DNA of 64,000 nt from assembly GCA_963807605.1 (NCBI GenBank), contig CAWECG010000003.1, positions 320,001 to 384,000 on the forward strand, given 5' to 3'. Origin of the DNA: Candidatus Bathyarchaeota archaeon. GTDB lineage: Archaea > Thermoproteota > Bathyarchaeia > 40CM-2-53-6 > RBG-13-38-9. Both the position numbers and the translations under genes were made by a program. Shown here piece by piece: positions 5,838-63,881 of the stretch (positions are counted from its first letter, which is position 1; each line of letters opens with the position of its first letter). The notes under the pieces were generated by a model. That model had not been told where the DNA came from. It was given only the letters and a program-made list of their open reading frames with translations, and made no database searches.

Positions 5838-5936
5838 TGGTGGGGTCGGTGGGATTTGAACCCACGACCTCGCGGGTTCTTGAAGCCTCGGGGCTACCCA
5901 AGCCGCGTAGCGTAGACCAGACTAGCCCACGACCCC
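5838..5936 (-). tRNA. tRNA-Pro(UGG) with 20-nt canonical 37/38 intron, encoded CCA
   Basis: Acceptor GGGGTCG/CGACCCC-ACCA; anticodon stem CGCGG/CCGCG; T arm GTGGG-TTCAAAT-CCCAC. BHB-like motif: CTTG/CAAG helix with GG|T and AA|C bulges. Confidence 0.92.
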
Positions 5937-36469: not shown

Positions 36470-36558
36470 TGGCGGGCCCGCCGGGACTCGATGCGTTATT
36501 GAGTCTGAAAGTGGGCTCAAAATTCGTGGAGGTTCGGACCTTGAAGGGTTTGAACCTG
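36470..36558 (-). mobile_element. Family-B element end, copy 1: conserved arm plus tRNA-Arg/Lys 3' fragment (attR-like)
   Basis: The minus strand ends CGAGTCCCGGCGGGCCCGCCA; the adjacent ~68 bp is homologous to copies at 38200, 44330 and 49744. Confidence 0.7.
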
Positions 36559-36664
36559 ATTTATAAAGGCCTTGGCTGAGCGTGGGTGAATTACTTTAGT
36601 GTTCAGGCTGTTTTCTTTCATAGAGGTTTTTATATAAGGCCGCTTTGCATAGGGTCAGCTTGCC

Positions 36665-38181: not shown

Positions 38182-38199
38182 ACGAAGCAAGATTTTCTT

Positions 38200-46148: not shown

Positions 46149-48651
46149 GAGAGTGACCATGAGGGGATTTATGAGGTTCAAAGACAGCTTCGACATCAAG
46201 TTCCCACAAAACCAAGTTACGCTTATTGCTGGCGAGAACGGCGCAGGCAAGACATCAATTCTCGACGGGATTTGTGTCTGCCTTTACGGAAAGACTTTCA
46301 GGACCTCAGGAAAAACTACCTCGGGATATCTGAGAATCAACGATCTTGTCAATCACGAATCCCCTAATGCCACGATTAGGGTGGAATTCGAAAATCACGG
46401 CCACAATTACGTGGTAACCAGAGAGATCACGAAGCATGGTTCAGAAGGCGAACTATTTGAGGACGGAGAATCGAAAGCGCGAGGCCAGCGTGTCTATGAT
46501 TATGTTAAGAACAGGGCAATCGGCCTAGACTGGGAAGGCTTCAGAAAATCAACAATCATACTTCAAGGTGAAATGAATTCGCTTACGCAGCTTGAACCAA
46601 GCAAGAGAAAAGAAGCGTTTGTCACCCTGTTTGGTCTTGACAAGTATTTTGACTATCATAAGCTGGCACAAGAGAAGGCCAAAGGCAAGCAGTCAGATAT
46701 CGATAAGATAAAGGAAGCAAACAAGATACTCTCGTCAGACGTTCAGAAAATACCTGGAGTCAAGCAAGATATCAAGCGTATAACGCGATTGGTTGATTCC
46801 TTAGAAAGGAAGAAATTGCGACTCGATAAGACGGTTGGGCAGAGAAAACAAGAGAAGGACGCTTTAGAAGGAGACTATAATCGTTATGCCGTAGAGAAGG
46901 AAAAACTCAATGGAATAATCGGCCTGCTCAAAGAAGCGAGGAAGACTGTAAGAACGAATAATCAGGAACTTGGCAGGCTGCTACGGCTGCAAAAGAAATT
47001 CCCAAAACTAGAGGTATCTTACCAAGACTTTTCTTCGCTGGAAAGCAAGATCTCCAGTTTGAGGCCAGTCAAGTCAGAGTACGACGGATATGGTTCCGAA
47101 GTCACAGGACATAGAACCTCTCTAAAAGAAACAAAGGGAAAGCTCTCAGAGAATCTCCGTGACATTAGGCAGACTAAACAGGAGATATCTAGTCTTAGGA
47201 GACAGATTCCATCGCGGAGAAGACTGTCATCGGCAGAAGAGTCCGTGGAGAAAAGCCAGAGCCGCAAGAGTCAGCTGGAAAAGGACGAGGCTGGGTTGAA
47301 AGCCGAAATCAAACGAATCAATGAGTCCATCCAATCTTTGGAAAGTGATATGAGGCGTGTCAAAGGCAAGGCAAAGTGCCCCGTTTGCTTGCAGAAAATC
47401 ACAGAGCCGGAACAGGTGATGGGGCACTATCTGGGTGAAATTCGCACACTGGGGTCAGAGAAGCGGCAAAAAGAAAAGAGGCTCAAATCCGTAGGGGCCG
47501 ATCTGCAGGCTGTTTCGGACAAGCTCAACAAAGTTAGGCTGACCCTGACGGGGTTGAAAGAGAGGGCGGCCAAGAAAGGTGAGCTGAGCAGGGAACTAAG
47601 GAGGCTATCCACTCTCAGCGAAAAGAAGAAACAATTGAGAACCGAAATAAGCAAGGTCAAAAAGAGAATCGAAGAACTACTTCAACTGCAAGGAAAACTC
47701 AGTCTTGATCCTGACGAATATGACGACTTAGAAAAAAAGATGATGGCATTCCGTAGGAACAAGATCGCTGAAAAGTTTTCGAAGGCCAAGACCGAATTGG
47801 ACAGACTGACGAGTGTGAAAGAAAATCTGGAAAAGTCGAAAAATCGTCTTTCCAGCAGCCTAGCCGACAGAGACAATGTCATTGGAGAAATAAGAAAGTT
47901 CGGCAACATAGCGTTGCGGTACAGCACGGCTAAAACTCGCTTCGAAAAGGCACAGGATGCATTCAACAGAAATAACAGTACGCTCGCATCCAAGTCCCAA
48001 AACAAGAAACAGTTCGAGGACCAGCTGAAGGAGCTGAAAGAGAAAGAGAGAATTCTGAAGGATAACGAAAGAGCCATTCGGATTTCCCGCGAAGAGATTA
48101 CAGTTTTTGAGGAGTTGCGAGATGTATTCAAGAACATACCGGAGAACATCATGCGTAGACTCAGACCGTTCATTGAAAAGGAGGGGACGGACATCATAAA
48201 CGATCTTTCAAACAACGAGTTAACTGCTCTCAATATCGAAGAAGAAACGTTGAACGTAGCAGCTACTACGAACGGAGTGATCAGGCCCATTCATTATTTC
48301 TCAGGAGGACAGAAGACCAGAATCAATATGGCTCTTAGAGTTGCGATTTCTCGGATACTGAGCAAGTTGCCTCAAACTGAGGAACACACATTTGCTGTTA
48401 TGCGGACTTTGTTCGTCGATGAAGGAGATTTCGGCGATTTGGACGAGGCTGGCGTTCGTGAGGCAATTGCTGTTGTAAGAAACCTGACGAAGGAGTTTGA
48501 TTGTGTCATCTTGATTAGTCACGTTGACACTATCAGGGAAATATTCCATGGATACACCATTGAGGTTATTAAGACAGATATGGCCGAAAGCACCATCAAG
48601 ACATTCGGAGGCAGGGTCAGAGAATTGGACGCGCCGGAAATAGCCCTATAG
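46138..48651 (+). CDS. rad50: Rad50/SbcC-family SMC ATPase
   Basis: Walker A GENGAGKTS, Q-loop QGE, coiled coils, CPVC zinc hook, FSGGQ signature, Walker B FVDE, ISH. Confidence 0.9.
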   Translation: MKLKRVTMRGFMRFKDSFDIKFPQNQVTLIAGENGAGKTSILDGICVCLYGKTFRTSGKTTSGYLRINDLVNHESPNATIRVEFENHGHNYVVTREITKHGSEGELFEDGESKARGQRVYDYVKNRAIGLDWEGFRKSTIILQGEMNSLTQLEPSKRKEAFVTLFGLDKYFDYHKLAQEKAKGKQSDIDKIKEANKILSSDVQKIPGVKQDIKRITRLVDSLERKKLRLDKTVGQRKQEKDALEGDYNRYAVEKEKLNGIIGLLKEARKTVRTNNQELGRLLRLQKKFPKLEVSYQDFSSLESKISSLRPVKSEYDGYGSEVTGHRTSLKETKGKLSENLRDIRQTKQEISSLRRQIPSRRRLSSAEESVEKSQSRKSQLEKDEAGLKAEIKRINESIQSLESDMRRVKGKAKCPVCLQKITEPEQVMGHYLGEIRTLGSEKRQKEKRLKSVGADLQAVSDKLNKVRLTLTGLKERAAKKGELSRELRRLSTLSEKKKQLRTEISKVKKRIEELLQLQGKLSLDPDEYDDLEKKMMAFRRNKIAEKFSKAKTELDRLTSVKENLEKSKNRLSSSLADRDNVIGEIRKFGNIALRYSTAKTRFEKAQDAFNRNNSTLASKSQNKKQFEDQLKELKEKERILKDNERAIRISREEITVFEELRDVFKNIPENIMRRLRPFIEKEGTDIINDLSNNELTALNIEEETLNVAATTNGVIRPIHYFSGGQKTRINMALRVAISRILSKLPQTEEHTFAVMRTLFVDEGDFGDLDEAGVREAIAVVRNLTKEFDCVILISHVDTIREIFHGYTIEVIKTDMAESTIKTFGGRVRELDAPEIAL

Positions 48652-49743: not shown

Positions 49744-49824
49744 GGGCCCGCCCGGAACTGGACCGTTCTTGTAGCTGGTTTTAGAGTCAAATTCACGCGG
49801 GTTTGGCCCTTGCAGGTTCAAACT
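49744..49824. repeat. Family-B repeat, copy 4, with degenerate tRNA 3' fragment
   Basis: GGGCCCGCCCGGAACTGGACCGTT...GTCAAATTCACGCGGGTTTGGCCCTTGCAGGTTCAAACT aligns with copy 1. Confidence 0.65.
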
Positions 49825-49864
49825 ATTCTAGAGATACCAAAGCGCTTATGGTTTACAGGCTCAA

Positions 49865-49899
49865 CGGGATGCGGTCCCGCGATAACGCAAGGGTTCAAC
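49865..49899. repeat. Family-A repeat, copy 1
   Basis: CGGGATGCGGTCCCGCGATAACGCAAGGGTTCAAC. Confidence 0.85.
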
Positions 49900-50172
49900 A
49901 TTTCTATAGGTGCCCCTCACGAGTCAGAACTCGTGATTCTGAAGTCTCCATGTAGGTACCCAACGCGATCTCGTGTCATTCGGTAGCTATAGGACTATTT
50001 AATGGGAGCCGGTATGGAGCGTGCCCCTTCCTTAGTCTCTGCTCCTAGTCATCCTTCCCCAAGGTTTTGCTGGCACTTCAGCCATACTCAGCCGAGATAA
50101 GAAGGCATATCCGCAAGTTGTCTGAAGTCTTTATGTTATTGATGGTAATATTCCTCCTGGTGCATTATTCCT

Positions 50173-53100
50173 TTGACCGAGGCTCTTAGAGAAACACTAA
50201 CCTGGTTGTTTCTTTGTGCACCCATCATTCAAGAGCTTGGAAGTTCTGTCCTCAAAGACTTAGGAATAGCGCTGTCGGCTGATCAACTACCACACGTAGT
50301 CGAGAAGATAGCTGACCACGTCCGACCTCGAACACCATCAACGATTTTCAAAAGCGCTTTCAAGAAATCGGTAAAGCAACTGAGGAAAAAATGGAAAACA
50401 GAAACTATCAAAGATCTGGACAGAATGACCGAGAACATATGGAAGAATGTACGAGACTTAGTCAACAGTATGACTATCGATGAAATCATTGGTGACAAGC
50501 CGAAAATTATTCTACGACGAGCAATTGAGATCGCAGACGTCAAATTGGATGATGCTGAGTATGAAGAGCTTTTTCTTACTCTGAAACGTGGCCTTTCCGA
50601 CGAAATCGTCTCGCATGAGGATTCATTTCGAGAAATCGTTCTCCAGTCACTACAGGTAATGAATGAAAATCTGAGTCTCACAAGGCAGTTTACAGGGCAA
50701 GGAAGGTTACGAGTGTATCGTTCCCTCGAATCCCTCAAGTTAGGCTTCGATGCTTTGCTCGGTGGACGGATCGAGGTTATAGAAAGGGATGACGCTAGAA
50801 AGCTGGCTGAGGAATTAGCGAAGAAGAAGCTAAAGGTAGTTGTGGAAGGACCACCATTTATTGGAAAGTCATGCGTCGCCTATTTAGTGGCGAAACATTG
50901 GATAGCAAAAGGAAAATCCGTCGCGATGATTCGAGGAGAGATGCTACCGGCAGACATTAAGATTCTTCAAGAAAATCAAGATCTTCTCTTGATTATTGAT
51001 TCCTCTAACTTAGGTCTATCCTGGAGCGATGTGCCCAGTCAAATAGAAATCGCTAACAGAGCTCTAGTGGTGAGAAGGTTTGGAGATCCTCGAGGTATTA
51101 ATGTAAATGATGTCAGAGACTATCTGGATAGTTTCGAGTACACGGCAAATATTTCCGAGAAACTCGGTGTATCCAAGATAAGACTTAGGCTCGGGCAAGA
51201 GCTTCGTATGGATCTCGTGATTGCGTCACTCTCAAAAGAGTTCGCAATAGTGATTAGTGACGAATTAAGTGAAGACTTTTCGAGAATCTGTAAAGGGCCG
51301 GGTTTTGAGCCTATACCCGGATTAGCCAGGCTTCTTTTCATCTTCTTGAAGAAATTAATCGATCAAGGCTCGGTTAGATCCCCTGTCTTGGCTACTGATG
51401 TAGAATACGCAATGATAACTCTCAGCAAGCTATCCAAGTATGAAGCAATGATAAAGCAGTTACTTTCCTGGCTAGGTGATGACATAGTCGACTTTTTGGT
51501 GACTCTCAAGTTTCTGCAACCATACTTAGGCTATTCCAATGTCTTCCTAAAAGAAACGGTAGAATCCACACATCACGCGTATCACAAGAAACCACTTGAA
51601 GAACGGATCCTAAGGGATTTGAAAAGGTTAAGCATTCTCATGGACGTCGGCGACGCCCCCTTCTACTTACTTTGGCATGGTTTTTTGGCGGATGTTGTGG
51701 AGCTGCAAACTTCCCATGCCAAACTTATACTCACAATCAAAGACTTGACCTCCGATTTGGAAAAAATCCTCTCTACAACCCCCACTAACAACCTCCTCAG
51801 ACTAGATACGGGAAGAATCGAGTGGGATGTTGATCCAAAAGAAGCGATACGAAACCTGAAGAGATGTATGACTGTTTTCGAAATTAGATTCGTAGCAGGA
51901 GAATTTCTTGCGGTCAAAATCCTAGATTCTTTAGATCTGGATGATCTCGAAAGGTCTGGAGAGTCGATGCAAAAATACTTTGAACTGCTCGGCGACGATG
52001 AGTATGGAAATGAGATCAAAATCAATGTTTTGAGTACGCTTCCACTGTTGGTCGGCTCAACGAATCTGATAGAGTATCTTGCCCGCGTGAATAAAATCGC
52101 CCTTCACACCATTCAAAAAATGCCAGAGCCCCAAGATGGACTTCATAATTTCTATTCAATGTGTATCGCAAAGATCATTGAATCATCAACCTTAAATGAT
52201 GCAGTTAAAGAGAACTACATCGGCCATGTTGACAACATGGCAATCCAAGCTTTCGAGGGGATTCCAAACCCCGAATCAGGGTTCATGAACTACTTTTCAA
52301 TGCGGATCTCGAAGACAGCAAGCCCGAAAAGTATCAGTTTAGAAAATAAGAAACGCTGGATAAGCTACCTCAACAATAAAGCATTAGAGGTTATCCACAG
52401 AAGATCTAACCCTGACAATATGCTGTGGAACTACTATTCACTGGCTATCTCGCATATAGCTACATCGAAGTTCATCGAGGAACAGGACAAGGATCTGTGG
52501 GTGGCCTATGTAGACAATATGGCAACCCAAGTTTTCAGTAGCTTGCGGAATCCTTTGGAACACTTTTCTAACTACTATTCAATGTGTATCGCAAAGATAA
52601 TTGAACTTACAACCATAGCAAATGAAGATAAGGAGAAATTGACAATTCATTTAGACAGGAAAATCTTCCAGAAAGTCCAAGAGAGACCTAATCCCGAAGA
52701 TATGGTATCAGACTATTATGCTGGGTGCATTATCCATGTAATCGAATCTCAATTGCTCCAGAATGAAGAGAAGGAACAATGGATAAATTGGATCGAGATG
52801 ATGGCTAATAGGACATTCGAGAAAATGACGAATCGGGAAATACTATTCGCCGTCTTCTATTCAATGTCCATCGTAAAGACTGCAGGCTCCCCATTGGTTA
52901 AGGATAAAGACAAGGAAGATTGGGCAGTTAGAATCTTAATTAGGGCAGAAGAAACGGGACACTTTTCAGATATGATGATACTCAAAACACTGACCGAACT
53001 TGCGCTGCACAGGATATCTCTTGACAGTCTTTGGCAGATGATGATAGCGAGAACATTAAGAAAGGAAGAGCTACGATTCTCTCTTGAACTAATGATACAA

Positions 53101-53175
53101 CAATTTGGAGATTATGCAGGTCTCGACACTAGTGAACCCCTAAGAATTGTGAGACAAATGTTCGGTCCTATGTAG
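50173..53175 (+). CDS. P-loop (STAND-like) ATPase with about six 47-aa C-terminal helical repeats
   Basis: Walker A GPPFIGKS, Walker B LLIID; repeats of consensus N[YF][YF]SMxIxKIxxS...KExWxxxxDN.A......NP. Confidence 0.65.
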   Translation: MTEALRETLTWLFLCAPIIQELGSSVLKDLGIALSADQLPHVVEKIADHVRPRTPSTIFKSAFKKSVKQLRKKWKTETIKDLDRMTENIWKNVRDLVNSMTIDEIIGDKPKIILRRAIEIADVKLDDAEYEELFLTLKRGLSDEIVSHEDSFREIVLQSLQVMNENLSLTRQFTGQGRLRVYRSLESLKLGFDALLGGRIEVIERDDARKLAEELAKKKLKVVVEGPPFIGKSCVAYLVAKHWIAKGKSVAMIRGEMLPADIKILQENQDLLLIIDSSNLGLSWSDVPSQIEIANRALVVRRFGDPRGINVNDVRDYLDSFEYTANISEKLGVSKIRLRLGQELRMDLVIASLSKEFAIVISDELSEDFSRICKGPGFEPIPGLARLLFIFLKKLIDQGSVRSPVLATDVEYAMITLSKLSKYEAMIKQLLSWLGDDIVDFLVTLKFLQPYLGYSNVFLKETVESTHHAYHKKPLEERILRDLKRLSILMDVGDAPFYLLWHGFLADVVELQTSHAKLILTIKDLTSDLEKILSTTPTNNLLRLDTGRIEWDVDPKEAIRNLKRCMTVFEIRFVAGEFLAVKILDSLDLDDLERSGESMQKYFELLGDDEYGNEIKINVLSTLPLLVGSTNLIEYLARVNKIALHTIQKMPEPQDGLHNFYSMCIAKIIESSTLNDAVKENYIGHVDNMAIQAFEGIPNPESGFMNYFSMRISKTASPKSISLENKKRWISYLNNKALEVIHRRSNPDNMLWNYYSLAISHIATSKFIEEQDKDLWVAYVDNMATQVFSSLRNPLEHFSNYYSMCIAKIIELTTIANEDKEKLTIHLDRKIFQKVQERPNPEDMVSDYYAGCIIHVIESQLLQNEEKEQWINWIEMMANRTFEKMTNREILFAVFYSMSIVKTAGSPLVKDKDKEDWAVRILIRAEETGHFSDMMILKTLTELALHRISLDSLWQMMIARTLRKEELRFSLELMIQQFGDYAGLDTSEPLRIVRQMFGPM

Positions 53176-53212
53176 ATGTGGTCAGAGAGTTCAGTCACCC
53201 AGTATGACAGAC

Positions 53213-53283
53213 CGACGGGATACTAACCCGCGATAACACATGGGTTAACTTCTTGATCTGAAGTCATCGGAGCAACGCGCGCG
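53213..53283. repeat. Family-A repeat, copy 2 (long form)
   Basis: CGACGGGATACTAACCCGCGATAACACATGGGTTAAC plus TTCTTGATCTGAAGTCATCGGAGCAACGCGCGCG. Confidence 0.9.
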
Positions 53284-53410
53284 ATTCTGTGAGAATTCAT
53301 TAGGATTTTTGAAAGTAGCTTACTCTGTGTCCTTACTGTTGGGTCGATAGCAGCACGCGTGCTCAAAGCGATCGTGATTATGTTTAGACCTGAGATTTCT
53401 TTCTTTATTG

Positions 53411-56400
53411 TCAGTGTAGTATTTGAGCAACTTTAGTTACTTGTTCTGGGTAGAACTTTACAAGCAAGCTACATACAACATCAGCAGCTTCAAGATATTG
53501 CGCACATGGCATAAGAAGTAGTTTGAACTTTTCTCTATTACCTGTTTCGGCAACTGCTTCGGCCACTCTAACCAGATGCGTGGCACGGTCGGTCAAGATA
53601 TTCCCGGTCGTAAGTAATGCCTCCTCTACCAACCCCCTCGTTGCTTGAGCTCTGGCAATTTCTGCAAGAGCCGGAACTCGGAACATTTCATCATCCATAT
53701 GTTTTGCAGCGTTGATCGCCTGTTCGAATTCACCTTTCCTTACGTAGGCTTCTACGATGGGTTCAAAGGAAGATTGCCCAAAGATATGTTCTTGTTTGGC
53801 AATAATGATCGCTTGTTCATACGGACCAATTTCAGCTTGCGCTCTAATGATATCTTTAAAAATCAAAAGACGTTCTAAGTCGCCAGTTCTTTTTGCGTTG
53901 GTGATTGCCTCTTCAAGTAGTCTATTTGCTGCTTCTTTTTGACCTGATTTAGCCTGAGCTACAGCAATATCTACGAGAGCTGAAAGGCGTGATAGCACCC
54001 CATCCATACTTTCTGTAATAGCTGTTGCTTCTCCAAGAAACCTATGCGCGTCATCCTTTCGATTCAGTTCAGCTTGAGCACATGCAATATCTGCAAGAGC
54101 TTCAGCGTGTGACCAGGCGGCACTTATCTGTTTTGCAATGGTGATTGCTTCCTCAAGTAGTCTATTTGCTGCTTCTTTTTGACCTGATTTAGCCTGAGCT
54201 ACTGCAATGTCCGTAAGTGTTAATACTCGTGATGTTGCGTCGTCTATTTGATTCGCCGTATCTACCGCTCGTGCAAACTCATTCATCCGATTCAGGGCCA
54301 CTACGATATTCTTCAAAGTGAAAGTCCGGATCCATTCGTCGCCTATATGTTTCTCGATACTAGCAACTTCCTCAATAGACTCGCGGGCTGCTTCTTTCTG
54401 ACCTGCTTTGGCTTGGGCGGCAGCAATAGATGCGAGGGACGCCGCTCTTTGCGGCTCATTCTCAATAATAGCCGTGGTACTACTCGCTTGCGATAACTCG
54501 TCCGTTTCTGCTTGAGCTATTGCAATGATTGTGAGAGCAGAATCGCGCGACGATGCATCATCTATATTCTTGGCAATTGAGCTTGCTTTCTCAAGAAGCC
54601 GGTGCGCTCCATCTTTTTGATCCAATCTAGCTTGAGCTACGGCAACGAAAGACAAGGCAACTACTCGTGATCGCATATCATCTATTCTTTCTGTAATGGT
54701 GATTGCTTCCTCAAGTAGTCTATTTGCTGCTTCTTTTTGACCTGATTTAGCCTGAGCTACTGCAATGGTTGCAAGAGCCCAACCACGTTCCCCATCATTT
54801 TTTATTTGTTTTGCGGTAGCAATAACTTCTTCAAGAAGCTCACGGGTTCCCACTTTATGATCCAATTCTGCCAAGGAGTTTGAAATGGCATCGATAGCTG
54901 AAGCACGTCCCTTGTCACCATTTATTCGTTCCAAGGTCATAATCACCTGCTCAAACTTACCCACTTTTATTTGAGCTGTTGCGATTTTTTTGAGCGCTGA
55001 GACTCGCCACGGTGCACGGTCTATCATTTCTTCAATCTTAATGGCTTCTTTGAGGAGTCTATCTACCATCTCTTTCTGGTGCTTCCTGGTTTCAGATCCG
55101 GCGATTCGTGCAAGATATGAAACGGTTTCCCATCTGTCAGCTGCCTGTCTTGTGGTGGCGATCGCCTGCTCAATCTCACCTCTGTCTGCCTGAGCCCTTG
55201 CGATGGATTCAAGAATTGCCCTTCGGGCGAAAATCCGTCCCTCTGCTCTATTCTCCTGTTTGGCAATAGTGATCGCCTGGGGAAACTCACCTTTCTTTAC
55301 TAGAACTTCTACGATATCTCCAAGTGCGGAAGACTTTTCCAATTGAGCATCTATCTGTTTTGCAGTTACGATAGCTTGCTCAATCTCACCTCTTTCAGCC
55401 TGGGCTTGGGCCATGAACAAAAGGGTGAGATCCTGCTGGGACCCCATCTCTTTAGCGAAGGCGATCGCTTGTTCAGACTCACCTATCTCTGCTTGAGCCC
55501 ACGCCAAATTTTGAAAAATCAAGTTTCCAGAATGCACATCGTCTATCTGTTTGGCGGTAGCGATAGCTTCTTGGAGGATCTTATGAGCTTCTTCCTTCTG
55601 GCCCGTTCTTGCTTGAGCTTTCGCGATTTCGGCAAAAGCAAAAACTTGAGAATCTTTATCATCTATCTGTTTTGCGTTAGCTATGGCTTCTTCGAGCACT
55701 TTATGCGCTTCTTCGTTCTGGCCTGATCCTGTTTGAGCTTTCGCGATTTCGGCAAGAGCTCTAACTCGTATTACCCCTTTTTCTATTCTACTTGCTGTAG
55801 TAGTTGCTTGCTTAAACTCGCCTCTTCTTATTTGGTCTTCTACGATGGACTCAAAAGCAGAAGATCTTTCCTGCACATCATCTATCTGTGCTGCGGTGAC
55901 CATTGCTTGTTCAAACTCATCCCTTTCCAATTGGATCTTTACGATCGATTCGAGGATTGAGGCCTGAATTGAAACTCGTTTCTGTTCGTCGTTTATCTCT
56001 CTTGCATAGGTAATCGCTTGTTCGAACTCATCCCTTCTTAGTTGAGCCAGTATGACAGATTGAAGAGCGGAAGATCGTTCTACACTATCTATTTGTTTTG
56101 CAGTGGTTATTGCCTGCTTAAACTCGCCCATTTCTGCTTGAGTGTCTACGATGCTTGAAAGAGCGGATGATCGTTTCCACTTATCGTGTATCTGTTTCGC
56201 GGTGCCAATAGCTTCTTCAAGAAGCTCACGGGCTTCCTCTTTGCGGCCTAATGCTGCTAGGGCTTTTGCAATGTCAGCGATAGCTGAAGCACGTTTCGTT
56301 AGGTCTTCTATTTGTTTTGCAGTGGTTATTGCCTGCTTAAACTCGCCCATTCTAAACTGAGCTTCTGCTATGCCTGTGAGTGCAAAAGCACGGTGCCATT

Positions 56401-59400
56401 CATTATCAATCTGTTTTGCCAGAGTGATCGCATGCCCGACGTCGCCTTTTTTCATGAGCATTCTTGCAATTGAAGCAAAAACTGAGGGCAAGCTTGAAGC
56501 CCACACCATTTGGTTGTCTATTTGACTCACGGCGGCAATTGCTTGGTCAAACTTACCTTCTCTTGCTTCAGTCTCTGCAATACCTGCGAGAGCCCAACCA
56601 CGCCTCCAATCATCTTCTATTTGTTTTGCAGTGGTTATTGCCTGCTTAAACTCGCCCATTTCTGCTTGAGTGTCTACGATGCTTGAAAGAGCGGATGATC
56701 GTTTCCACTTATCGTGTATCTGTTTCGCGGTGCCAATAGCTTCTTCAAGAAGCTCACGGGCTTCCTCTTTGCGGCCTAATGCTGCTAGGGCTTTTGCAAT
56801 GTCAGCGATAGCTGAAGCACGCGATCTCTTATCATCAATCTGCTTTGCATTAGCCAAAGCCTTTAGAAGGAAGCTGCCAGCAACCTCACCCTCGCCCAAT
56901 TCTACCATGGCTTCAGTTACATCTGCAAGAGTCATGGTGCCTTCCGCTGTGTCAAGTAATTGCCTTACAGCGGCGATAGCTTCTTCAAGAAGCTCACGGG
57001 CTTCCTCTTTGCGGCCTAATGCTGCTAGGGCTTTTGCAATGTCAGCGATAGCTGAAGCACGCGATCTCTTATCATCTATCTGTTTTGCATTAGCTATGGC
57101 TTCTTCGAGCACTTTATGCGCTTCTTCCTTCTGGCCTGATCCTGTTTGAGCTTTCGCGATCTTTACTAGAGTTGAAACTCGTGGCTCTTTGCTATCGATT
57201 CGTCCAGCAGTAGCGATAGCTCGCTCAAACTCCATCTTCTCGATGTAAGCTTTTGTGACGGATTCAAATGCCAGTTCACGGGCTGGTTCGTCATCTGCCT
57301 GATCTATGGTGGCTATAGCCTCCTCAAGCTTACCCTCTTTTATATGAGCTACTACAATGCTGTGAAGAGCTGAAGCTTGCCAAGATTCTTCATGCGCTAT
57401 CCTTGCCAACTTTACAGCTTTGCCAAAGAGTGCGGGAGTTGACAGATACTTTGTGTTGGTACTTGACTGCAAATCGCCTAGTAGGCTCTTGACGAGTTCA
57501 GAAATAACATCGGACTGAATATCATGCAGCTTAAGTAACAGGCAGAAAGCACATAAACCCTGCCACCCTGATAGGCTCGTAAGTTCTTTAAGACTTAGAC
57601 GCTCAAGCGTTTGGATCGCTTGATTGTTAAGCCTTTTTTCTTTCAGCGCCCAAGCTAACAGCAAATACCATAGGCTGCAGTATTCAATTTCTAACAAGTC
57701 GGCCAACTGCCAAGCTCGCTGCAGGTTTCCCATCCTTAGAGCTTGCAAGGGAGTCTCCTCAGTAGTTCCAAGCTTCTGTCTGGCATGTAGTATTGAGAAT
57801 TCCACCATACTCGCTGCGTCATCACTTCTAATAGCGGCAACGAGCGCCATCTGAATAGTTCGTAAGGTGACAGTCGGTTCGTCAATCAGAGTCTCTTTTT
57901 GCGCTGATGCAAAGGCATTATCTCTTGCAAGTTTGTAAAGAGCATCGATTTGATTCTCTTCCAGCAAATGCTCTGCATAATGTCTCATTGCATAGCTGCT
58001 TTTGCTCTCTCTCCAGTTGGCACAGTATTCTAGTAGTTTCTGACGATAGCTTTGTGCGTCTCTTTCACTGAAGGCATAACGTCGGTATCCCTCAGCAATC
58101 GCAGAATGAGAATAAAAGTAGAAATTTAGGTTATTCTCTCTTTCTATGGTTAGCCACCTTCTCACTTCCCATGGCAGGCTAACAAAATCCCGTTTGCGAA
58201 GCCCTGTTAGCTCCATAAGATCACTTTCAGAAAGTCGGCTCTTCGCAAATGCTAGTATGCATAAAGCTTCATCCCACTCCTGCCGTACCTTGCCAGCATT
58301 GGCAATTTGAGCCACGAAGTCTTCGAATTTGGACGGCAGCTTGTCGATTATTTCTCTCCAATGTTGTTCATTTGTCTGCTTGAGTTCTTCTGTCAGATGT
58401 CGGAGATAGATGGCTAATCCACCTGTGATTTTCAATAGTTGGCTGACAAATGCAGCATCTTCTGCTTTTGTCTTGAGTCTCTCGTTTCCAGATATCAGCA
58501 GAAGTTCTTTTACTGCAGCAGCGCCCAGCTCAGGTAGAAGGAAGTTCTTCATGGATTGCAGGCCTAGCTGGTCACACAATTTCCGTGTTGTAGCCTCACC
58601 TTCTGTGGCACGTGCTGTGAATATCACTACTGAATTTTCGCCCAATGTCTCAGGAAACAGGCCTTTTCGGAAGGCAAACTCACCGGGGTGTTGCGCATCG
58701 CGCGCTTCGTCTAGCCCATCGACAATAATGACTAATCTTGAAGGATGAGGGTTCGAAAGCACACTGGTGATTATTGCACGCAGTTTCAGCGGTTCGCTTT
58801 CCCATATCTCACCAGTCATGTTATGAACACGTAAAAGCTGTTCACTCAAACATGCAAGAAAGCCGTTGAAATCTTCCGTGCCCCACTTGGAACTAAGAAA
58901 GTGGTAGCACATCTTCAAATCATTTTTTTGTGATGCCAGGGAATTCAGCCAGTGCGCCATAAGGGAAGACTTGCCACCACCAGCAGGAGACGTGGTCAAA
59001 AGGTAACCAGTACCTGAAAGCACGAATTGATTCAGCCTAAAAATTGAATCCTCCCGACCGACAAACGGTGTCCTTTCGGTCAATTCACGCAGTACGCGCT
59101 CATCATGCTGTCGTCGCCTATACTCTACAGTCTCCCCCTCTTGTATAAACCGCCCACTAGTCAGTTCTTTCAGATCTTCGATCGTATGTGCTATCCTGTT
59201 AAGTGCCTCTGATCGCTCATGACTGATCTCCTCCATGCGGCTAATCCCTTCATGGACCAACGACAGCAATTGGACAACTGACTGAGCAAGTTGCGCAAGA
59301 AGACTAGGCACAGTCGCCAGAGTATTCAGCCTAAGCTTCAATTCATCAAACTCCTGTCGCTGTTCTTCAGTAAGGTCGGTCAAACGTATTTTCAACTTGT

Positions 59401-60085
59401 CAAGCAATTCCACGGTTTGGAGTAAGAATGAGCGTTGAAAATCGATCCAAGCTCGGCTATATTGCGGATTTTTGATGATTTCAGCCAGTGACGTCTCTAG
59501 GTTTTGCAGGAGGTTGTCCTTTAGGAAGTTGCGCAAGCCTTGGGGCATGGTCTGTACGCCACCCCAGGTGAGCAGCATCTGTTCAGTTAAGCGCCACTGC
59601 GACTCTTCTGCGTCTTCTCCATTTGCCATTGTCAGAATTTCATTGAGCTTCAAATCTCCCAAAAAGAACTCGTCGAGTGTCTGCTCATCGTGTTTAGCTT
59701 GCTTCAACTTGTTAAGCCATACGTCAAAGAGGCGCTCCTCCATATCGGTGAGCCGCTTGCTTCGAACCAAGCGCTTTTTGACTCCTTGCTTGGCTCGAAA
59801 TTCTTTTCGCTTGTTTCTGATTGCCATTGATAGAGCTGCTGCCATGGCTCGTTGAATATCATGATTTGGGGGTACCGAAATCTCCTTGGCAAGATCTTCA
59901 ACAAGATCGGCAGAGATTCCGCTGAAGATGCCGGCACCTGCTTGGGCATAGCCTTCTATTATCATGCTCAGTGCTCCACCAGCCAAATTGCCCAAGATGC
60001 TGCCGATGGGACCGACAGCTGCAGCGCAACTCACTGAAGCGATCAATCTGAGCGCATTTCGAAAGGAGTAATGCACAGATCTCAC
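53411..60085 (-). CDS. NACHT/STAND NTPase with ~1300-aa TPR-like solenoid (NLR/Avs-like architecture)
   Basis: FVGRE, Walker A SPAGGGKS, CYHF, Walker B IIVDGLDE, GLAIY (GxP-like), many 33/40-aa 'A.QIDD...R..AL..IA..QA..G....A' repeats. Confidence 0.85.
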   Translation of the reverse strand: MRSVHYSFRNALRLIASVSCAAAVGPIGSILGNLAGGALSMIIEGYAQAGAGIFSGISADLVEDLAKEISVPPNHDIQRAMAAALSMAIRNKRKEFRAKQGVKKRLVRSKRLTDMEERLFDVWLNKLKQAKHDEQTLDEFFLGDLKLNEILTMANGEDAEESQWRLTEQMLLTWGGVQTMPQGLRNFLKDNLLQNLETSLAEIIKNPQYSRAWIDFQRSFLLQTVELLDKLKIRLTDLTEEQRQEFDELKLRLNTLATVPSLLAQLAQSVVQLLSLVHEGISRMEEISHERSEALNRIAHTIEDLKELTSGRFIQEGETVEYRRRQHDERVLRELTERTPFVGREDSIFRLNQFVLSGTGYLLTTSPAGGGKSSLMAHWLNSLASQKNDLKMCYHFLSSKWGTEDFNGFLACLSEQLLRVHNMTGEIWESEPLKLRAIITSVLSNPHPSRLVIIVDGLDEARDAQHPGEFAFRKGLFPETLGENSVVIFTARATEGEATTRKLCDQLGLQSMKNFLLPELGAAAVKELLLISGNERLKTKAEDAAFVSQLLKITGGLAIYLRHLTEELKQTNEQHWREIIDKLPSKFEDFVAQIANAGKVRQEWDEALCILAFAKSRLSESDLMELTGLRKRDFVSLPWEVRRWLTIERENNLNFYFYSHSAIAEGYRRYAFSERDAQSYRQKLLEYCANWRESKSSYAMRHYAEHLLEENQIDALYKLARDNAFASAQKETLIDEPTVTLRTIQMALVAAIRSDDAASMVEFSILHARQKLGTTEETPLQALRMGNLQRAWQLADLLEIEYCSLWYLLLAWALKEKRLNNQAIQTLERLSLKELTSLSGWQGLCAFCLLLKLHDIQSDVISELVKSLLGDLQSSTNTKYLSTPALFGKAVKLARIAHEESWQASALHSIVVAHIKEGKLEEAIATIDQADDEPARELAFESVTKAYIEKMEFERAIATAGRIDSKEPRVSTLVKIAKAQTGSGQKEEAHKVLEEAIANAKQIDDKRSRASAIADIAKALAALGRKEEARELLEEAIAAVRQLLDTAEGTMTLADVTEAMVELGEGEVAGSFLLKALANAKQIDDKRSRASAIADIAKALAALGRKEEARELLEEAIGTAKQIHDKWKRSSALSSIVDTQAEMGEFKQAITTAKQIEDDWRRGWALAGIAETEAREGKFDQAIAAVSQIDNQMVWASSLPSVFASIARMLMKKGDVGHAITLAKQIDNEWHRAFALTGIAEAQFRMGEFKQAITTAKQIEDLTKRASAIADIAKALAALGRKEEARELLEEAIGTAKQIHDKWKRSSALSSIVDTQAEMGEFKQAITTAKQIDSVERSSALQSVILAQLRRDEFEQAITYAREINDEQKRVSIQASILESIVKIQLERDEFEQAMVTAAQIDDVQERSSAFESIVEDQIRRGEFKQATTTASRIEKGVIRVRALAEIAKAQTGSGQNEEAHKVLEEAIANAKQIDDKDSQVFAFAEIAKAQARTGQKEEAHKILQEAIATAKQIDDVHSGNLIFQNLAWAQAEIGESEQAIAFAKEMGSQQDLTLLFMAQAQAERGEIEQAIVTAKQIDAQLEKSSALGDIVEVLVKKGEFPQAITIAKQENRAEGRIFARRAILESIARAQADRGEIEQAIATTRQAADRWETVSYLARIAGSETRKHQKEMVDRLLKEAIKIEEMIDRAPWRVSALKKIATAQIKVGKFEQVIMTLERINGDKGRASAIDAISNSLAELDHKVGTRELLEEVIATAKQIKNDGERGWALATIAVAQAKSGQKEAANRLLEEAITITERIDDMRSRVVALSFVAVAQARLDQKDGAHRLLEKASSIAKNIDDASSRDSALTIIAIAQAETDELSQASSTTAIIENEPQRAASLASIAAAQAKAGQKEAARESIEEVASIEKHIGDEWIRTFTLKNIVVALNRMNEFARAVDTANQIDDATSRVLTLTDIAVAQAKSGQKEAANRLLEEAITIAKQISAAWSHAEALADIACAQAELNRKDDAHRFLGEATAITESMDGVLSRLSALVDIAVAQAKSGQKEAANRLLEEAITNAKRTGDLERLLIFKDIIRAQAEIGPYEQAIIIAKQEHIFGQSSFEPIVEAYVRKGEFEQAINAAKHMDDEMFRVPALAEIARAQATRGLVEEALLTTGNILTDRATHLVRVAEAVAETGNREKFKLLLMPCAQYLEAADVVCSLLVKFYPEQVTKVAQILH
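56088..56821. repeat. Intragenic exact duplication: 56088-56293 repeated at 56616-56821 (offset 528)
   Basis: Identical DNA and peptide (RASAIADIAKALAALGRKEEARELLEEAIGTAKQIHDKWKRSSALSSIVDTQAEMGEFKQAITTAKQI); a further ~100-bp copy at offset 240. Confidence 0.85.
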
Positions 60086-60250
60086 CTTCTATCCAGAAAC
60101 TGCCCTTATAGCTGCACTGCGATATTTCGCAGTTCTAGAATAAAACTCATGACTCTTTTCATGACATATAAAACAATGGCTCTCACTATCCGTGCTAGAG
60201 CCCGCCAGACGGCATAGGCGAAAATGGCACACCTTCTGATATGGAGAACT

Positions 60251-60289
60251 CGACGGGATACTAGCCCGCGATAACGCAAGGGTTCAACT
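60251..60289. repeat. Family-A repeat, copy 3
   Basis: CGACGGGATACTAGCCCGCGATAACGCAAGGGTTCAACT. Confidence 0.9.
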
Positions 60290-60303
60290 ACCAGAGTGTC
60301 CAT

Positions 60304-61020
60304 TCACTTGGAGCTTCCAGATAAACCTCGGTTAAGGTCGCTTCGTTGTCTCATTTCTTGGAACAATCTAGTCCTTTTGAGATCAGATATATGTGGGATG
60401 ATGGCATCAACGTAATTTTGACTGTTTTCAACAATACATCGTAGTCTCTCTTCGACTAGAATAGATCTCATGTTAAGAATTGCACCGCCAAGTATGTCAG
60501 TTCTTATCTTGTCGCCAACAACGACCGCATTTTGCGGCGTGATTTTGAGCTTGTCTAAAGCCAGTTTGAAGATTCTTGGGTCTGGTTTCAAATATCCTAC
60601 GTCACACGAAAAAATAATTACTTCAAATCGTTCCCGGAGTTCTAATAAGTCCAATATATAGTGGCTGGTGGGCGGGGTATTTGAAATTAGGGCTAATTTC
60701 ATTCCTTCGCCGCGCAAATCGTCGAGGATTTCCGATGCCCCAGGCTCAAGCTTAGCATGTTGGACGCTATTCATCCAAGCTGTTTGAACTTTGTGGCTGA
60801 GAGCCGCATCCCCCATTGGATTTACAACTCGATCGAAACGTTTTAGGAAATCTTGCATATTCTGTCTCGGGAATTTGTCGCAGAGTCTGTATATCACAGA
60901 CCTTACTTGTTCTGTACTAGCATACTCAAGAAGTTCAGCCAGACAGCGCTCCTCGTCAAATTCGTCCGGAATTGACATCAAAGTATTCCCAAGATCGAAT
61001 ATCCAAGCGGAGATTCCCAT
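60304..61020 (-). CDS. HAD-superfamily hydrolase
   Basis: FDLGNTL, ISNT, KPDPRIF, VGD...TDI.G. Confidence 0.9.
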   Translation of the reverse strand: MGISAWIFDLGNTLMSIPDEFDEERCLAELLEYASTEQVRSVIYRLCDKFPRQNMQDFLKRFDRVVNPMGDAALSHKVQTAWMNSVQHAKLEPGASEILDDLRGEGMKLALISNTPPTSHYILDLLELRERFEVIIFSCDVGYLKPDPRIFKLALDKLKITPQNAVVVGDKIRTDILGGAILNMRSILVEERLRCIVENSQNYVDAIIPHISDLKRTRLFQEMRQRSDLNRGLSGSSK

Positions 61021-61021
61021 A

Positions 61022-62185
61022 TCACCATCTTCCTGCTAGATTGGTCTTGAAAATAAACCTCATCACTCGCATTGTTGCACGTTCGATAAGTTGACGAGCG
61101 TTTGTTATCGATTCTTCAAGTGAAATGGGGCCCTCAGAAATACATTCCACTGCGTCAATTCCATTATAGAAGATGTCCTCATGATCAAGAGCTATCGAGC
61201 CGACGATGGCTATCACGGGCAAGTCATATTTCTTTGCCTTAAGTGCAACTCCGCAAGCAATCTTGCCAGTCGCAGTCCGGTCATCGATTCGACCTTCTCC
61301 TGTTAGGACAAGGTCTGTTTGAGACAGATAACGGTCTAGATGAACATATTGGTCTACTACATCTATGCTGTAGAGGAGACGTGCACCAAAAAAAGCATAT
61401 AGTGACGCTGCAAGTCCTCCCGCACCTCCCGCCCCCGGGATAAAAGACAGATCAATCCCGCGTTCCTTGAAGACCAAATCAACGAAATGGTCCACTCCTC
61501 CAGATAAGAGGGACACTTGTTTTGGAGTGGCTCCTTTCTGAGGAGCATAGACTCGGCTGGTTCCCTCGGGTCCACATAGGATGCTAGTTAGGTTACATGC
61601 CACAGTGATCTCTACGTCAGAAAGCTTCTTGGCAGCATCAGCATAATCAATTCGCATTACATTGTTCAGATCAGATCCTGTCGGGAAGCTCAACGGCCTT
61701 GCACTTCTATTAGAATAGAATTTGACACCAAGTGCAGTCGCGCACCCAATGCCGCAGTCATTTGTAGCGCTATCTCCACATCCAACAATAATTCTTCTTG
61801 CACCGCCTTCGATTGCTTTGCTAATTAGCTGTCCAACCCCAAAGGTAGATGTCAGAAGTGGATCACGTTTGTTCCTCGGGACGAGAGATAATCCAGCAGC
61901 AGTTGCGCTCTCGACTATTGCTGATTCTCCATCTCCCAAAAATCCAAAATAGGAGTCTATCTCTTCTCCGAGCGGATCCTTTACTTTAACATTTTCTAGG
62001 CGTCCTCCTGTAACCTCTGTCAGGAGTCTCGCTATGCCAGAGCCTCCGTCAGAAAGTGGTCGGACAGTTACAGAGGCAGTAGGAACGATCTCCTCCACGC
62101 CGGTCTTCATTGCCTTGGCGACTTCGAAGGAACTGAGGCATTCTTTGTAGGGTCCAGGTGCAACAAGAATGTTAGAAAGATCCAT
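61022..62185 (-). CDS. glxK: Glycerate kinase, class I (GlxK/GarK family)
   Basis: APG.YKECLS, PLSDGG.G, ESA.AAGL, ST.GVGQLI, G.SATND.G.G, LCGPEG..RVYAPQKGA, GAGGAGG, TGEGRID..T..GK. Confidence 0.88.
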   Translation of the reverse strand: MDLSNILVAPGPYKECLSSFEVAKAMKTGVEEIVPTASVTVRPLSDGGSGIARLLTEVTGGRLENVKVKDPLGEEIDSYFGFLGDGESAIVESATAAGLSLVPRNKRDPLLTSTFGVGQLISKAIEGGARRIIVGCGDSATNDCGIGCATALGVKFYSNRSARPLSFPTGSDLNNVMRIDYADAAKKLSDVEITVACNLTSILCGPEGTSRVYAPQKGATPKQVSLLSGGVDHFVDLVFKERGIDLSFIPGAGGAGGLAASLYAFFGARLLYSIDVVDQYVHLDRYLSQTDLVLTGEGRIDDRTATGKIACGVALKAKKYDLPVIAIVGSIALDHEDIFYNGIDAVECISEGPISLEESITNARQLIERATMRVMRFIFKTNLAGRW

Positions 62186-62187
62186 AT

Positions 62188-62952
62188 CTACTGTCGATCC
62201 ATGTGTTTGACAACAAACTTCTCTGCGTCATCAAAGTCAGACGGGACATTGATGTTACACACAGGAATATCGACAATCCGAGAATAGACTGTAATACCCG
62301 AAAGAACCATTGCCTTGAGTATCAAGATCCATCCAGTTTGAAATGGCTTCAAATTATCTGGCACACTGTCCTTTGTTATGGGTTTAGGCAATATCTTCCT
62401 TATTTTTGCAAGGGATCGTTTTGTCAAAATTAGTAATACACGTTCAAAACTAGTTTGTGTGTCTTTCTTGTTGATATCGTTTAGGCAATTGTCCTTAACA
62501 ATGAACTCCCATTTCTTGTGGCCAGGTTTTGGGAGCTCAACAAACAGGGCTGTATCATGCTTCTCGTTCTTAGAGAAGTCGCTCAGGACTTCCCTGACAG
62601 CTCTTTTTGGCACAAGAACATCTGAGCTCATTCCAAGGAATGCTTCCGCAGAGTCCTCTTCTGCCACTTCAAAGACTGATTCTGCCATCGTCCTATTTGG
62701 CAAGTTGCGGAATTCGACATTATCTCTTTCGAAGAAGGCACGTATGAGCTCGCCTTTGTAGTCAATTGCGATTATTGGTCTCAACATTCCGGTGCCCAAT
62801 AACGAGTTAAGTGCGTACCAAAGGATTGGCCTTCCGCTCACTGGTAACAGTGGTTTAGGAAGGTCGTAGGTTCTCGGTCTAAGCCGGGTGCCAAGACCAC
62901 CCGCCAAAACAATAGGGCGTATCTTGTTCCCAGTATGCTTGCCTACTGTCAT
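62188..62952 (-). CDS. Nucleotidyltransferase (NTP_transferase family)
   Basis: VLAGGLGTRLRP.T..LPKPLLPV.GRP, SSD, C-terminal NIN.P.D. Confidence 0.85.
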   Translation of the reverse strand: MTVGKHTGNKIRPIVLAGGLGTRLRPRTYDLPKPLLPVSGRPILWYALNSLLGTGMLRPIIAIDYKGELIRAFFERDNVEFRNLPNRTMAESVFEVAEEDSAEAFLGMSSDVLVPKRAVREVLSDFSKNEKHDTALFVELPKPGHKKWEFIVKDNCLNDINKKDTQTSFERVLLILTKRSLAKIRKILPKPITKDSVPDNLKPFQTGWILILKAMVLSGITVYSRIVDIPVCNINVPSDFDDAEKFVVKHMDRQ

Positions 62953-63626
62953 AGTTCCATTTCTTCACCAAAACCTAAGACACAAGCCTTGATTCCGTAT
63001 CTGTTTGCCTTCTCTGCAAATTCCTTTGGATCAACTCGATCTTTGTCTTTGGGTGAATCGTAGTGTAGCGGAATTACTAACAATGGTTTTAGCTCGCTAG
63101 CAAATACGAGCGCATCGTCAATCCCCATCACCACTCCACGGTCAGATATGGGCACAAAAAGATATTTCGTCCGAGTTTCCTCAGGAAGCAGCGATGGGTC
63201 CATGAATCGAGTGTCGCTTGTATAGTAAATACTGGTCCCATCTGCCGATATGACCAAACCAAAATTGGCTATATTCTCGCCCCTTACTACGTGGTCGGTC
63301 TTTGTCGCTGTAAGGGTGAATCCTGCCTCCACAATCTTAGTTCCTTCCACTATCACTTTTGAGTCTATTCCTTCATTATGCAAAATCTTGTCGATTTCCG
63401 AATTTGTGAGGATTACAGGCTTACTCCTGGACAAGATTGACTTTAACAACTCGAGGTCGAAATGATCAGCATGCTTGTGGGTAATTGCAATTACATCTGC
63501 AATTGGGAAATCTTTTGAAGTCACCCTACCTGGATCTAAGTTATACTTGCCTGGATCAATCAAGAGTCGTCTGCCCGTTTGCGCAGTGAGCAGAACGGTG
63601 CTTTGTGCAAGCCGCCTAAGTTTCAA
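62949..63626 (-). CDS. MBL-fold metal-dependent hydrolase (UPF0173/UlaG-like)
   Basis: LIDPG, THKHADH, H, YYTSDT, P....VM....A......P..VIPLHY. Confidence 0.85.
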   Translation of the reverse strand: MKLRRLAQSTVLLTAQTGRRLLIDPGKYNLDPGRVTSKDFPIADVIAITHKHADHFDLELLKSILSRSKPVILTNSEIDKILHNEGIDSKVIVEGTKIVEAGFTLTATKTDHVVRGENIANFGLVISADGTSIYYTSDTRFMDPSLLPEETRTKYLFVPISDRGVVMGIDDALVFASELKPLLVIPLHYDSPKDKDRVDPKEFAEKANRYGIKACVLGFGEEMEL

Positions 63627-63811
63627 GTATTGACCCCCTTTCCATCATGCCTGTTATTAATCTGTGCACTGAAGTTCATATAACTTTAGCATAGCTCTTC
63701 GTCTCGACCTCTCGTCTTTTCATCCTGTATTGTACATAAGCTCAAAGAGATTGAGTCAGAAAAGCCAAATTAGTAGAGAAGCTGTTCGAGTTCTTCACAT
63801 GTCATGTTTCA

Positions 63812-63881
63812 GGGGGGTACTAACCCGCGATAACGCATGGGTTTAACTTCTGAATCTGAAGTCATCGGAGCAACGCGCGCG
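63812..63881. repeat. Family-A repeat, copy 4 (long form)
   Basis: GGGGGGTACTAACCCGCGATAACGCATGGGTTTAAC plus TTCTGAATCTGAAGTCATCGGAGCAACGCGCGCG. Confidence 0.9.

Follow-up and report, generated by a model that had tools for sequence, protein, structure and literature searches.

A repeated intergenic site related to the 3′ half of tRNA-Lys(CUU) lies at the junctions of accessory gene modules in Bathyarchaeia

Bathyarchaeia are abundant in sediments, are uncultured and have no genetic system, and their acquisition of genes is poorly understood. The attachment (att) sites of archaeal integrases of the SSV and pNOB8 types are exact copies of the downstream half of a tRNA, which is thereby restored. 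On Acinetobacter plasmids, pdif modules are bounded by 28-bp Xer sites in alternating orientation and are moved by the host XerC/XerD. In archaea, tyrosine-recombinase elements are described that use one tRNA att site repeatedly in tandem, and crenarchaeal att sites measure 29-69 bp (PMC6563490). In bacteria, decay to integrase-less, att-flanked cis-mobilizable elements (CIMEs), followed by accretion at tRNA 3′ ends, is described (PMC5704250). Integrons and clusters of attC sites lacking integron-integrases (CALINs) have been reported in Archaea with canonical attC sites and IntI (PMC9668308). Reported here is a repeated site, called the motif, which separates gene modules in a 64,000-nucleotide (nt) stretch of DNA from a Candidatus Bathyarchaeota archaeon (GCA_963807605.1, contig CAWECG010000003.1, forward strand). 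This whole stretch, the window, is G000:C3:320001-384000 of a genome (G000) of 2.65 Mb in 5 contigs. Other G labels denote genomes of the same order that were compared, and L labels denote fetched loci or metagenome contigs.

Four copies of the motif, all on the + strand and all intergenic, bracket three modules in the window, one copy at each junction. An 11-nt core is exact in all four (49876, 53227, 60265 and 63824), where 0.53 occurrences with up to one mismatch would be expected by chance. A repeat finder returned a single 40-nt family at 49860, 53211, 60249 and 63808 with 70-88% identity to the reference copy, and a covariance model, R1, built on 17 motif copies gives the four a score of 56-67 bits (E 1e-14 to 1e-17). 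By the span of this model, copy 1 occupies positions 49850-49905 (64.2 bits, E ~1e-16, with the core region starting at ~49866), copy 2 positions 53201-53256 (57.5 bits), copy 3 positions 60239-60294 (66.8 bits, E ~1e-17) and copy 4 positions 63798-63853 (56.3 bits). An earlier note, made from the letters of this DNA, had placed four co-oriented copies with an invariant core between the genes, one per junction, and its positions and its distances to the gene ends were found again. The conserved block reaches ~13 nt further 5′ than was described there and totals ~50 nt. The additional flank noted for copies 2 and 4 is also present and consists of 42 nt with 93% identity (53242-53283 and 63840-63881). 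Pattern and fuzzy searches of the whole genome returned these four copies and just two divergent ones, both intergenic, at C3:190295-190350 (− strand) and C4:12522-12577 (+ strand).

When the reverse complement of the consensus is aligned with the 3′ half of tRNA-Lys(CUU), 45 consensus positions are covered; 36 of the 42 aligned bases are the same, there is a single 3-nt gap, and no other of the 22 tRNA genes of the genome matches the motif as well. Identity covers the last bases of the anticodon loop, the 3′ strand of the anticodon stem, both strands of the T-stem, the acceptor strand, the discriminator base and the CCA. Of the T-loop, two bases beside the acceptor-side T-stem strand are fixed and agree with the tRNA, and the central part is variable among copies. 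The variable loop is exchanged for a longer and highly conserved box, GATAWCG. With R1, real tRNA reaches 15-25 bits and motif copies 30-73 bits, thus the motif is a distinct sequence class. ARAGORN predicts no tRNA at the motif, and Rfam model RF00005 detects the real tRNA gene and not the motif. On this alignment, the motif is a diverged reverse-strand copy of the 3′ half of tRNA-Lys(CUU). A tRNA read on the + strand (anticodon arm, variable arm and T-arm) was also tried and did not fit; the fit is restricted to the opposite strand, as a 3′ half.

The tRNA gene itself was reached through clustering of the open reading frames (ORFs) that neighbour the motif. G008 and G034 are of different families, yet their arrays end at one and the same block of eight syntenic genes, and between block and array lies an intron-containing tRNA. 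When the 24-nt intron at position 30/31 is removed, ARAGORN reports this gene as tRNA-Lys(CTT) with an encoded CCA. In G008, G012 and G034, arrays start directly at the 3′ end of tRNA-Lys(CUU), with the motif on the opposite strand. On the 5′ side of the tRNA, synteny over the eight genes extends to the own genome (C3:605-610 kb), whereas the 3′ side is different in all three genomes. A layout of anchor plus distal repeat is seen in these three, and not in the window array, in G027:C15 or in G038:C32. Between G027 and G034, of genus g12, homology ends within 1-2 bases of the CCA end; downstream of the tRNA the DNA is unrelated in both, and a clean empty site was not obtained. In at least seven further metagenome-assembled genomes (MAGs), a contig end falls within ~1 kb of the tRNA 3′ end, which suggests a variable, repeat-bearing hot spot that breaks short-read assemblies.

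Some features of the tRNA gene were noted in passing. The 24-nt intron at 30/31 of tRNA-Lys(CUU) in this order is non-canonical (L049:7101-7201; G000:C3:610560-610700), and in G000 and G008 the gene has a second intron near position 9. Detection of tRNA genes in the own genome gave 9 with ARAGORN and 19 with Rfam, and most were missed.

The motif is widespread in the order. R1 finds it in 46 of 105 genomes, and a degenerate core pattern finds it on >120 metagenome contigs, a count that is a lower bound. Matches to the pattern come from further genera and families of the order, and a reversed control pattern gave none. A species-level scan with a degenerate pattern (one genome per species, 185,579 prokaryotes) gave 21 matches, which consist of 15 in Bathyarchaeia and 6 singletons in unrelated taxa; the motif is essentially absent outside Bathyarchaeia. 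No match was found in the IMG/VR viral collection. Co-orientation is strict, with the copies of every genomic cluster and of 18/18 multi-copy metagenome contigs on one strand. The largest genomic clusters consist of 5 copies in G034:C9 and 4 each in G038:C32 and G008:C17. Copies lie 82-4209 nt apart on metagenome contigs and 0.9-7 kb apart in genomes. Among 121 full-length copies, only 6 have their core overlapped by an ORF of at least 120 aa, i.e. ~95% are intergenic, and adjoining genes present either their start or their stop to the site, on either side. An operator, a promoter element or a terminator, if tied to a gene, is thereby ruled out.

Over 102 distinct full copies from many genera, ~20 core positions are 90-100% invariant, which implies selection. 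The core that is not derived from the tRNA is better conserved than the part identical to the tRNA. Copies are bimodal in the 13-nt acceptor-like part: in 26 of the 102 it has at most 2 mismatches to the tRNA end, and in most others it looks random. In G038 (L053, L066, L067) the motif is situated inside a repeat of ~110 nt, in which a second T-arm-like box and then a conserved tail follow the core; the site has thus been lengthened in a lineage-specific way. Doublets of the motif 82-84 nt apart are found at L136:444-581, L145:3083-3196 and L162:1757-1867 and may be empty cassettes, or two units may abut there.

When the fetched loci are compared all against all, 27% of internal homology endpoints (blocks of at least 300 nt) lie in the 2.9% of sequence around motifs. 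This is ~9-fold over expectation, and the endpoints pile up at both edges of the motif. For example, homology between G012 and G008 (92.5%), which are of one genus, starts at the column of the motif that corresponds to the CCA end and spans a PIN/MazE cassette and the tRNA, and the sequences to the left are unrelated. A 1.64-kb AbiE-type cassette, which consists of an AbiEi-type antitoxin gene and a gene for a 304-aa partner with no Pfam match, is ~92% identical in L128, L176, L177 and L189 and partly present in L134. Its left contexts differ, and beyond the downstream motif core it has five unrelated right neighbours. L189 and L159 show the same context to the left of the motif and different cassettes to the right, and the L159 cassette is also found in L167. 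Such combinatorial neighbours are the pattern that would be expected of modules joined and exchanged at the site. The comparisons support the motif as a junction site between modules that appear to have been independently acquired, and the joints would have been made by site-specific recombination. A crossover point is not placeable within the 50 nt, as alignments continue through the conserved core from both sides.

The earlier note had proposed a recombination site that stacks cassettes in either orientation, and had named clustered copies at gene-content breakpoints and a cargo order that differs between strains as support. The co-oriented clusters, the breakpoints and the differing cargo are found, and the neighbouring genes face the site both ways. 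What does not stand is its novelty as a class, in that the site is a diverged copy of the 3′ half of tRNA-Lys(CUU). The patterns that the note had set against its own proposal are not seen: copies are not scattered at promoters, have no inverted partner or target duplication, and do not accompany a site-independent cargo order in relatives.

The cargo includes PIN plus a MazE-type antitoxin, PIN_2 plus a partner, a UPF0175 pair and several AbiEii/AbiEi pairs. Other modules carry a PKD-domain protein, a phosphotriesterase, a methyltransferase, glycoside hydrolases or an FMN reductase, and one module of G034 contains gene fragments only. Such genes (PIN/MazE, AbiE, STAND NTPases and assorted enzymes) are what islands typically carry. 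When 391 and 444 ORFs near the motif were clustered without bias, no recurrent partner protein emerged.

The probable explanation of these findings is a tandem accretion island, in which an att-type site that originates from tRNA-Lys(CUU) serves to stack modules through site-specific recombination. A module with one site would recombine with the 3′ end of tRNA-Lys(CUU) or with a resident chromosomal copy of the site; the product would be a module bracketed by co-oriented copies, and repeated rounds would stack modules. The explanation draws on the tRNA homology, the anchoring in three relatives, the co-orientation, the breakpoints at the site and the cassette with differing neighbours; that site-specific recombination made the joints, which enzyme acted and where the strands cross are inferences. 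The enzyme would most likely be a tyrosine integrase from the incoming element or from elsewhere, and would be supplied from outside the module because most modules carry none.

A number of observations weigh against tandem accretion, some from the layout of the arrays and others from the search for an enzyme. When G008 and G012 are compared, the cassette next to the tRNA is common and the distal ones differ, and insertion at the tRNA only predicts the opposite. The 5 nt between the short inverted arms of the motif are variable, differing among copies and from the tRNA, which would hinder a classical two-strand exchange across the spacer. Most tRNA-Lys loci elsewhere have no motif in the available downstream DNA. 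The window array lies 227 kb from its own tRNA-Lys(CUU) (C3:610605-610700), beside which there is no motif, and the arrays of G027:C15 and G038:C32 have no nearby tRNA.

As to the enzyme, none of the tested recombinase classes co-occurs with the motif. Among ~835 ORFs near ~150 copies, 5 are integrase-like, and the three modules of the window contain no integrase-like gene by Pfam. Tyrosine recombinases were sought in the own genome and in five array holders; no intact gene was found in G034 (5 copies) or in G027 (8 copies), although MAGs frequently lose mobile elements during binning. A 324-aa protein of Xer-like size (L235:1378-2352; G000:C3:769377-770351) is the strongest tyrosine recombinase of the own genome, and no orthologue was found in four array holders, G008, G034, G027 and G002. 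These lineages may lack a conserved enzyme of the Xer type, or the query may have missed it. In two contigs an integrase adjoins a copy at its CCA end in the same convergent geometry (L124 at 51 nt and L142 at 88 nt), and in G002:C26 an integrase lies at the far end of a 4.9-kb unit. The genes of the adjoining integrases are L124:3348-4412, L142:7038-8486 and L059:75-1319. These few adjoining integrases come from different families, and the family of the L124 integrase is present in 8 of the 105 genomes. Resolvases are neither near the motif nor track it. The Cas1 genes, at C3:803 kb and 1057 kb, are distant from the array and do not track the motif. Y1 transposases (PF01797), of which the own genome has four, were not found in G008, G034, G027 and G038.

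A tyrosine recombinase beyond position 64000 had been predicted, and one exists: a 417-aa integrase (L005:7896-9149), encoded 8.5 kb past copy 4, which has a zinc ribbon at its C-terminus. Its connection to the array does not stand. Homologues of this protein are situated ~100 nt downstream of assorted tRNA genes, in the orientation of the tRNA; the family targets tRNAs other than the one in question here. The own copy faces the wrong way for the array and, unlike eight homologues, has no tRNA 3′ end ~100 nt upstream; no left junction resembling a tRNA end was found nearby. The family and the motif share 15 genomes, and 13.6 would be expected by chance. The integrase belongs to a defence-type island just past the window (L005:1560-9149; G000:C3:385560-393149), which displays, in order, a ThsB-like TIR protein, zinc-ribbon proteins, a Metallophos and HATPase_c_3 pair and the 417-aa integrase.

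The near absence of integrases can also be read in another way, which is possible though rather doubtful. The motif would then belong to a dedicated, integron-like capture system that evolved separately, with non-autonomous one-site cassettes inserted, excised and reshuffled singly by a single recombinase acting in trans. The 3′ end of tRNA-Lys(CUU) would be the primary landing site, the resident copies would be further ones, and the site would measure 35-50 bp. The small size of the cassettes at the spacings given above, tidy one-function units such as toxin-antitoxin pairs, the mere 5 integrase-like neighbours for all ~150 copies, the occurrence of the same integrase-less cassette with different neighbours on both sides, and the conservation of the non-tRNA core above the tRNA-identical part all fit this explanation. 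However, no candidate enzyme was found in the array-bearing genomes, the adjoining integrases are few and of different families, and serial decay of autonomous elements plus shuffling could yield the same picture.

The earlier note had described two overlapping dyads in the motif and had likened them to a bulged hairpin of the attC kind. Both dyads are present; one is the tRNA T-arm and the other consists of the 3′ strand of the T-stem paired with the anticodon-stem strand. The hairpin mechanism is not supported. Folded as single strands, the window copies give −5 to −6 kcal/mol with z −0.1 to −2.2 against shuffles, and covariation is slight (19 double changes against 8.4 expected in 81 sequences; it was first counted on 17). 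In the small helices, the + strand alone tolerates G-T pairs. These values give no support to a folded attC-like substrate and do not speak against one. An attC site measures 55-140 nt and has a conserved fold with R and L boxes and little conservation of sequence; the motif, at ~50 nt with ~20 near-invariant positions, does not show this layout, and just 4 bp of R-box-like pairing can be drawn. No intI/attI head was found: the known array heads are the tRNA gene and have no adjoining tyrosine recombinase. Promoterless cassettes in one orientation, as in integrons, are not seen either, as genes face the site both ways. A Xer/dif layout, in which 11-bp arms flank a 6-8-bp spacer in a site of 28-30 bp, is not displayed, the inverted arms of the motif being only 4-5 bp. 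The search for ends of insertion sequences (IS), miniature inverted-repeat transposable elements or casposons showed no contig with an inverted copy and no inverted partner beside the anchor tRNA.

The strict co-orientation and the one-sided tolerance of G-T pairs bring to mind elements with single-strand ends, of the HUH/Y1 or rolling-circle type, in which the motif would be a hairpin such as those of IS200/IS605, REP or IS91 and the transposase would be elsewhere. The doublets 82-84 nt apart on some contigs and the four Y1 transposases of the own genome also agree with this. It is nonetheless highly improbable: the Y1 enzyme was not found in G008, G034, G027 and G038, the hairpins are no more stable than shuffles, N modules are accompanied by N+1 sites and not 2N, and the anchoring at a tRNA 3′ end with homology to it suits the att site of an integrase better.

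The least probable of the explanations considered is a functional RNA or regulatory DNA, i.e. a tRNA-like small RNA, a processing signal, a terminator or an operator. Positions that would be loops are strongly conserved, two short helices show the slight excess of covariation, and copies often abut stop codons. But Rfam 15 gives no match at the motif at gathering or at permissive thresholds, gene orientation and distance are not fixed, the 5′ acceptor strand that a tRNA-like minihelix would need is missing, and folding is weak. In addition, the copies cluster in variable islands and at synteny breaks and not at conserved genes.

In the window array, copies 1-3 have a decayed though still recognisable acceptor-like part, which copy 4 has lost. 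That of copy 1 is diverged and is directly preceded by a repeat of a second family (family B, 49744-49824). In the alignment, the 13-nt part of copy 3 matches the tRNA end at 9/13 bases, the complement of CCA included. The 5′ part of copy 4 is unrelated to the tRNA end; its core plus 34 nt are as in copy 2, and in both copies the common sequence stops at a (GC)n palindrome (53276-53283, 20 nt from the model end of copy 2, and 63874-63881). Similar palindromes lie beside the two divergent copies of the genome (G000:C3:190277-190284 and G000:C4:12506-12514). Thus a (GC)n palindrome is found 8-21 nt from 4 of the 6 own-genome copies, against a background of 2.5% of positions, and near none of 56 copies in relatives.

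The palindromes, the 34-nt homology that ends at one of them, and the decayed acceptor-like parts could mean that the motif is a passenger, an inert pseudo-tRNA remnant spread by duplication, by homologous recombination or by end-joining at (GC)n palindromes, and that the window array at least is a by-product of rearrangement. As a general explanation this is improbable, considering that palindromes are absent beside the relatives' copies, that the core is near-invariant over 102 copies from many genera, and that strict co-orientation and breakpoint enrichment extend across many genomes. With tandem accretion retained for the family, the window array is probably part of a motif-bounded array that has been moved and partly remodelled, because it is off tRNA-Lys(CUU), the acceptor-like parts of its copies have decayed and (GC)n joints adjoin two of the copies. 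It may no longer be active.

The modules of the window measure 3-7 kb, and two of them have their own AT-rich, promoter-like region upstream, as read from the sequence. Module 1 is a single ORF for a 1000-aa protein (50173-53175, + strand) with internal repeats D13, D15 and D16 and no match in a Pfam search. Module 2 encodes a 2224-aa NACHT-TPR protein of the STAND type (53411-60085, − strand), which matches Pfam NACHT, NPHP3_N and many TPR families and carries the internal TPR repeats D1-D9. The large proteins of modules 1 and 2 are two STAND-type NTPases. Module 3 is a tightly spaced operon of four genes with Pfam matches (60304-63626, − strand): a HAD hydrolase (60304-61020), a glycerate kinase (61022-62185), a nucleotidyltransferase (62188-62952) and an MBL-fold hydrolase (62949-63626).

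Left of copy 1, a Mre11/Rad50-like pair and a DUF1889 protein are encoded. Between the Mre11-like gene and the end of the window, 19 kb of DNA gave no match in G001, of the same genus, or in three other members of the family, G002, G003 and G008, which is weak evidence but consistent with accessory DNA. The Mre11/Rad50-like pair (44973-48651) lies between family-B repeats and has no DNA-level match in these four genomes; it may be island cargo and not a housekeeping copy.

The family-B repeats (36470-36575 and 49744-49824) also end in the 3′ end of a tRNA acceptor, on the minus strand. B1, the outermost copy, repeats the last 17 nt of tRNA-Lys(UUU) (C3:421413-421529), and a 29-nt inverted copy of the family-B arm is found right after that tRNA gene (G000:C3:421379-421529). 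This suggests a composite island of ~65 kb, with inverted ends and a target duplication, which encloses the motif array. The B1-B2 unit (36473-38191) is 88% identical to positions 4640-6364 of metagenome contig L171 (oriented). The L171 unit also starts at a B-type site, ~790 nt from a copy of the motif (family A), and by this comparison A-type and B-type sites appear to travel together in other organisms. The two families have in common a box of 9-10 nt, ATAACGCAT, near the tRNA-like end (49880-49890, and 36490-36500 on the minus strand), in opposite orientations relative to that end. The box could be a common protein-binding box or a coincidence.

The motif provides a sequence handle for a pool of accessory genes (toxin-antitoxin, STAND/NACHT defence and enzymes) in nearly half of the genomes of the order. 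It helps to delimit islands in fragmented MAGs and to explain assembly breaks downstream of tRNA-Lys. Should the modules be mobilised in trans, they would constitute an archaeal gene-cassette system independent of IntI and attC, and the defined site would be a starting point for a search for the enzyme and for integration tools. Should the copies be only scars of decayed elements, the array would be ordinary in kind, yet with an unusual att site that is constrained most at its non-tRNA positions.

In comparison with known systems, the pdif modules resemble the modules reported here in being small and recombinase-less, in often carrying toxin-antitoxin or resistance genes between short bounding sites, and in depending on an enzyme encoded elsewhere. 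However, the copies of the motif are co-oriented and derive from a tRNA, and the array-bearing genomes yielded no conserved enzyme of the Xer type. The att sites of the SSV and pNOB8 types likewise run from the anticodon side to the CCA end, over ~47 nt on the 3′ side of a tRNA. In the motif the variable loop and the T-loop differ, and the anchor tRNA retains its canonical 3′ half.

Integrons and CALINs likewise show co-oriented sites in alternation with small cassettes; they too often carry toxin-antitoxin genes, mostly have no adjoining integrase and vary in cassette order among genomes. In contrast, the motif is conserved in sequence and not in structure, folds weakly and has no R''/L''/L'/R' layout. 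Its anchor is a tRNA gene and not an attI next to intI, and its cassettes occur in either orientation, appear to have their own promoters and can be multi-gene.

The closest likeness in layout is with tandem accretion and CIMEs, where the units are also set apart by direct repeats derived from a tRNA 3′ end, the tRNA gene heads the arrays, integration genes are absent from most units, and the cargo is accessory (toxin-antitoxin, defence, metabolism). The length of the motif, ~50 nt, falls within the 29-69 bp of crenarchaeal att sites (PMC6563490). The differences are that the motif is a conserved mimic and not a plain copy of the tRNA end, with the non-tRNA positions most conserved, and that its units are often 1-3 kb with a single function and almost never an integrase, in arrays that are also found off the tRNA. 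Thus the region belongs to a known general kind of gene-capture island, although its flavour is unusual and integron-like.

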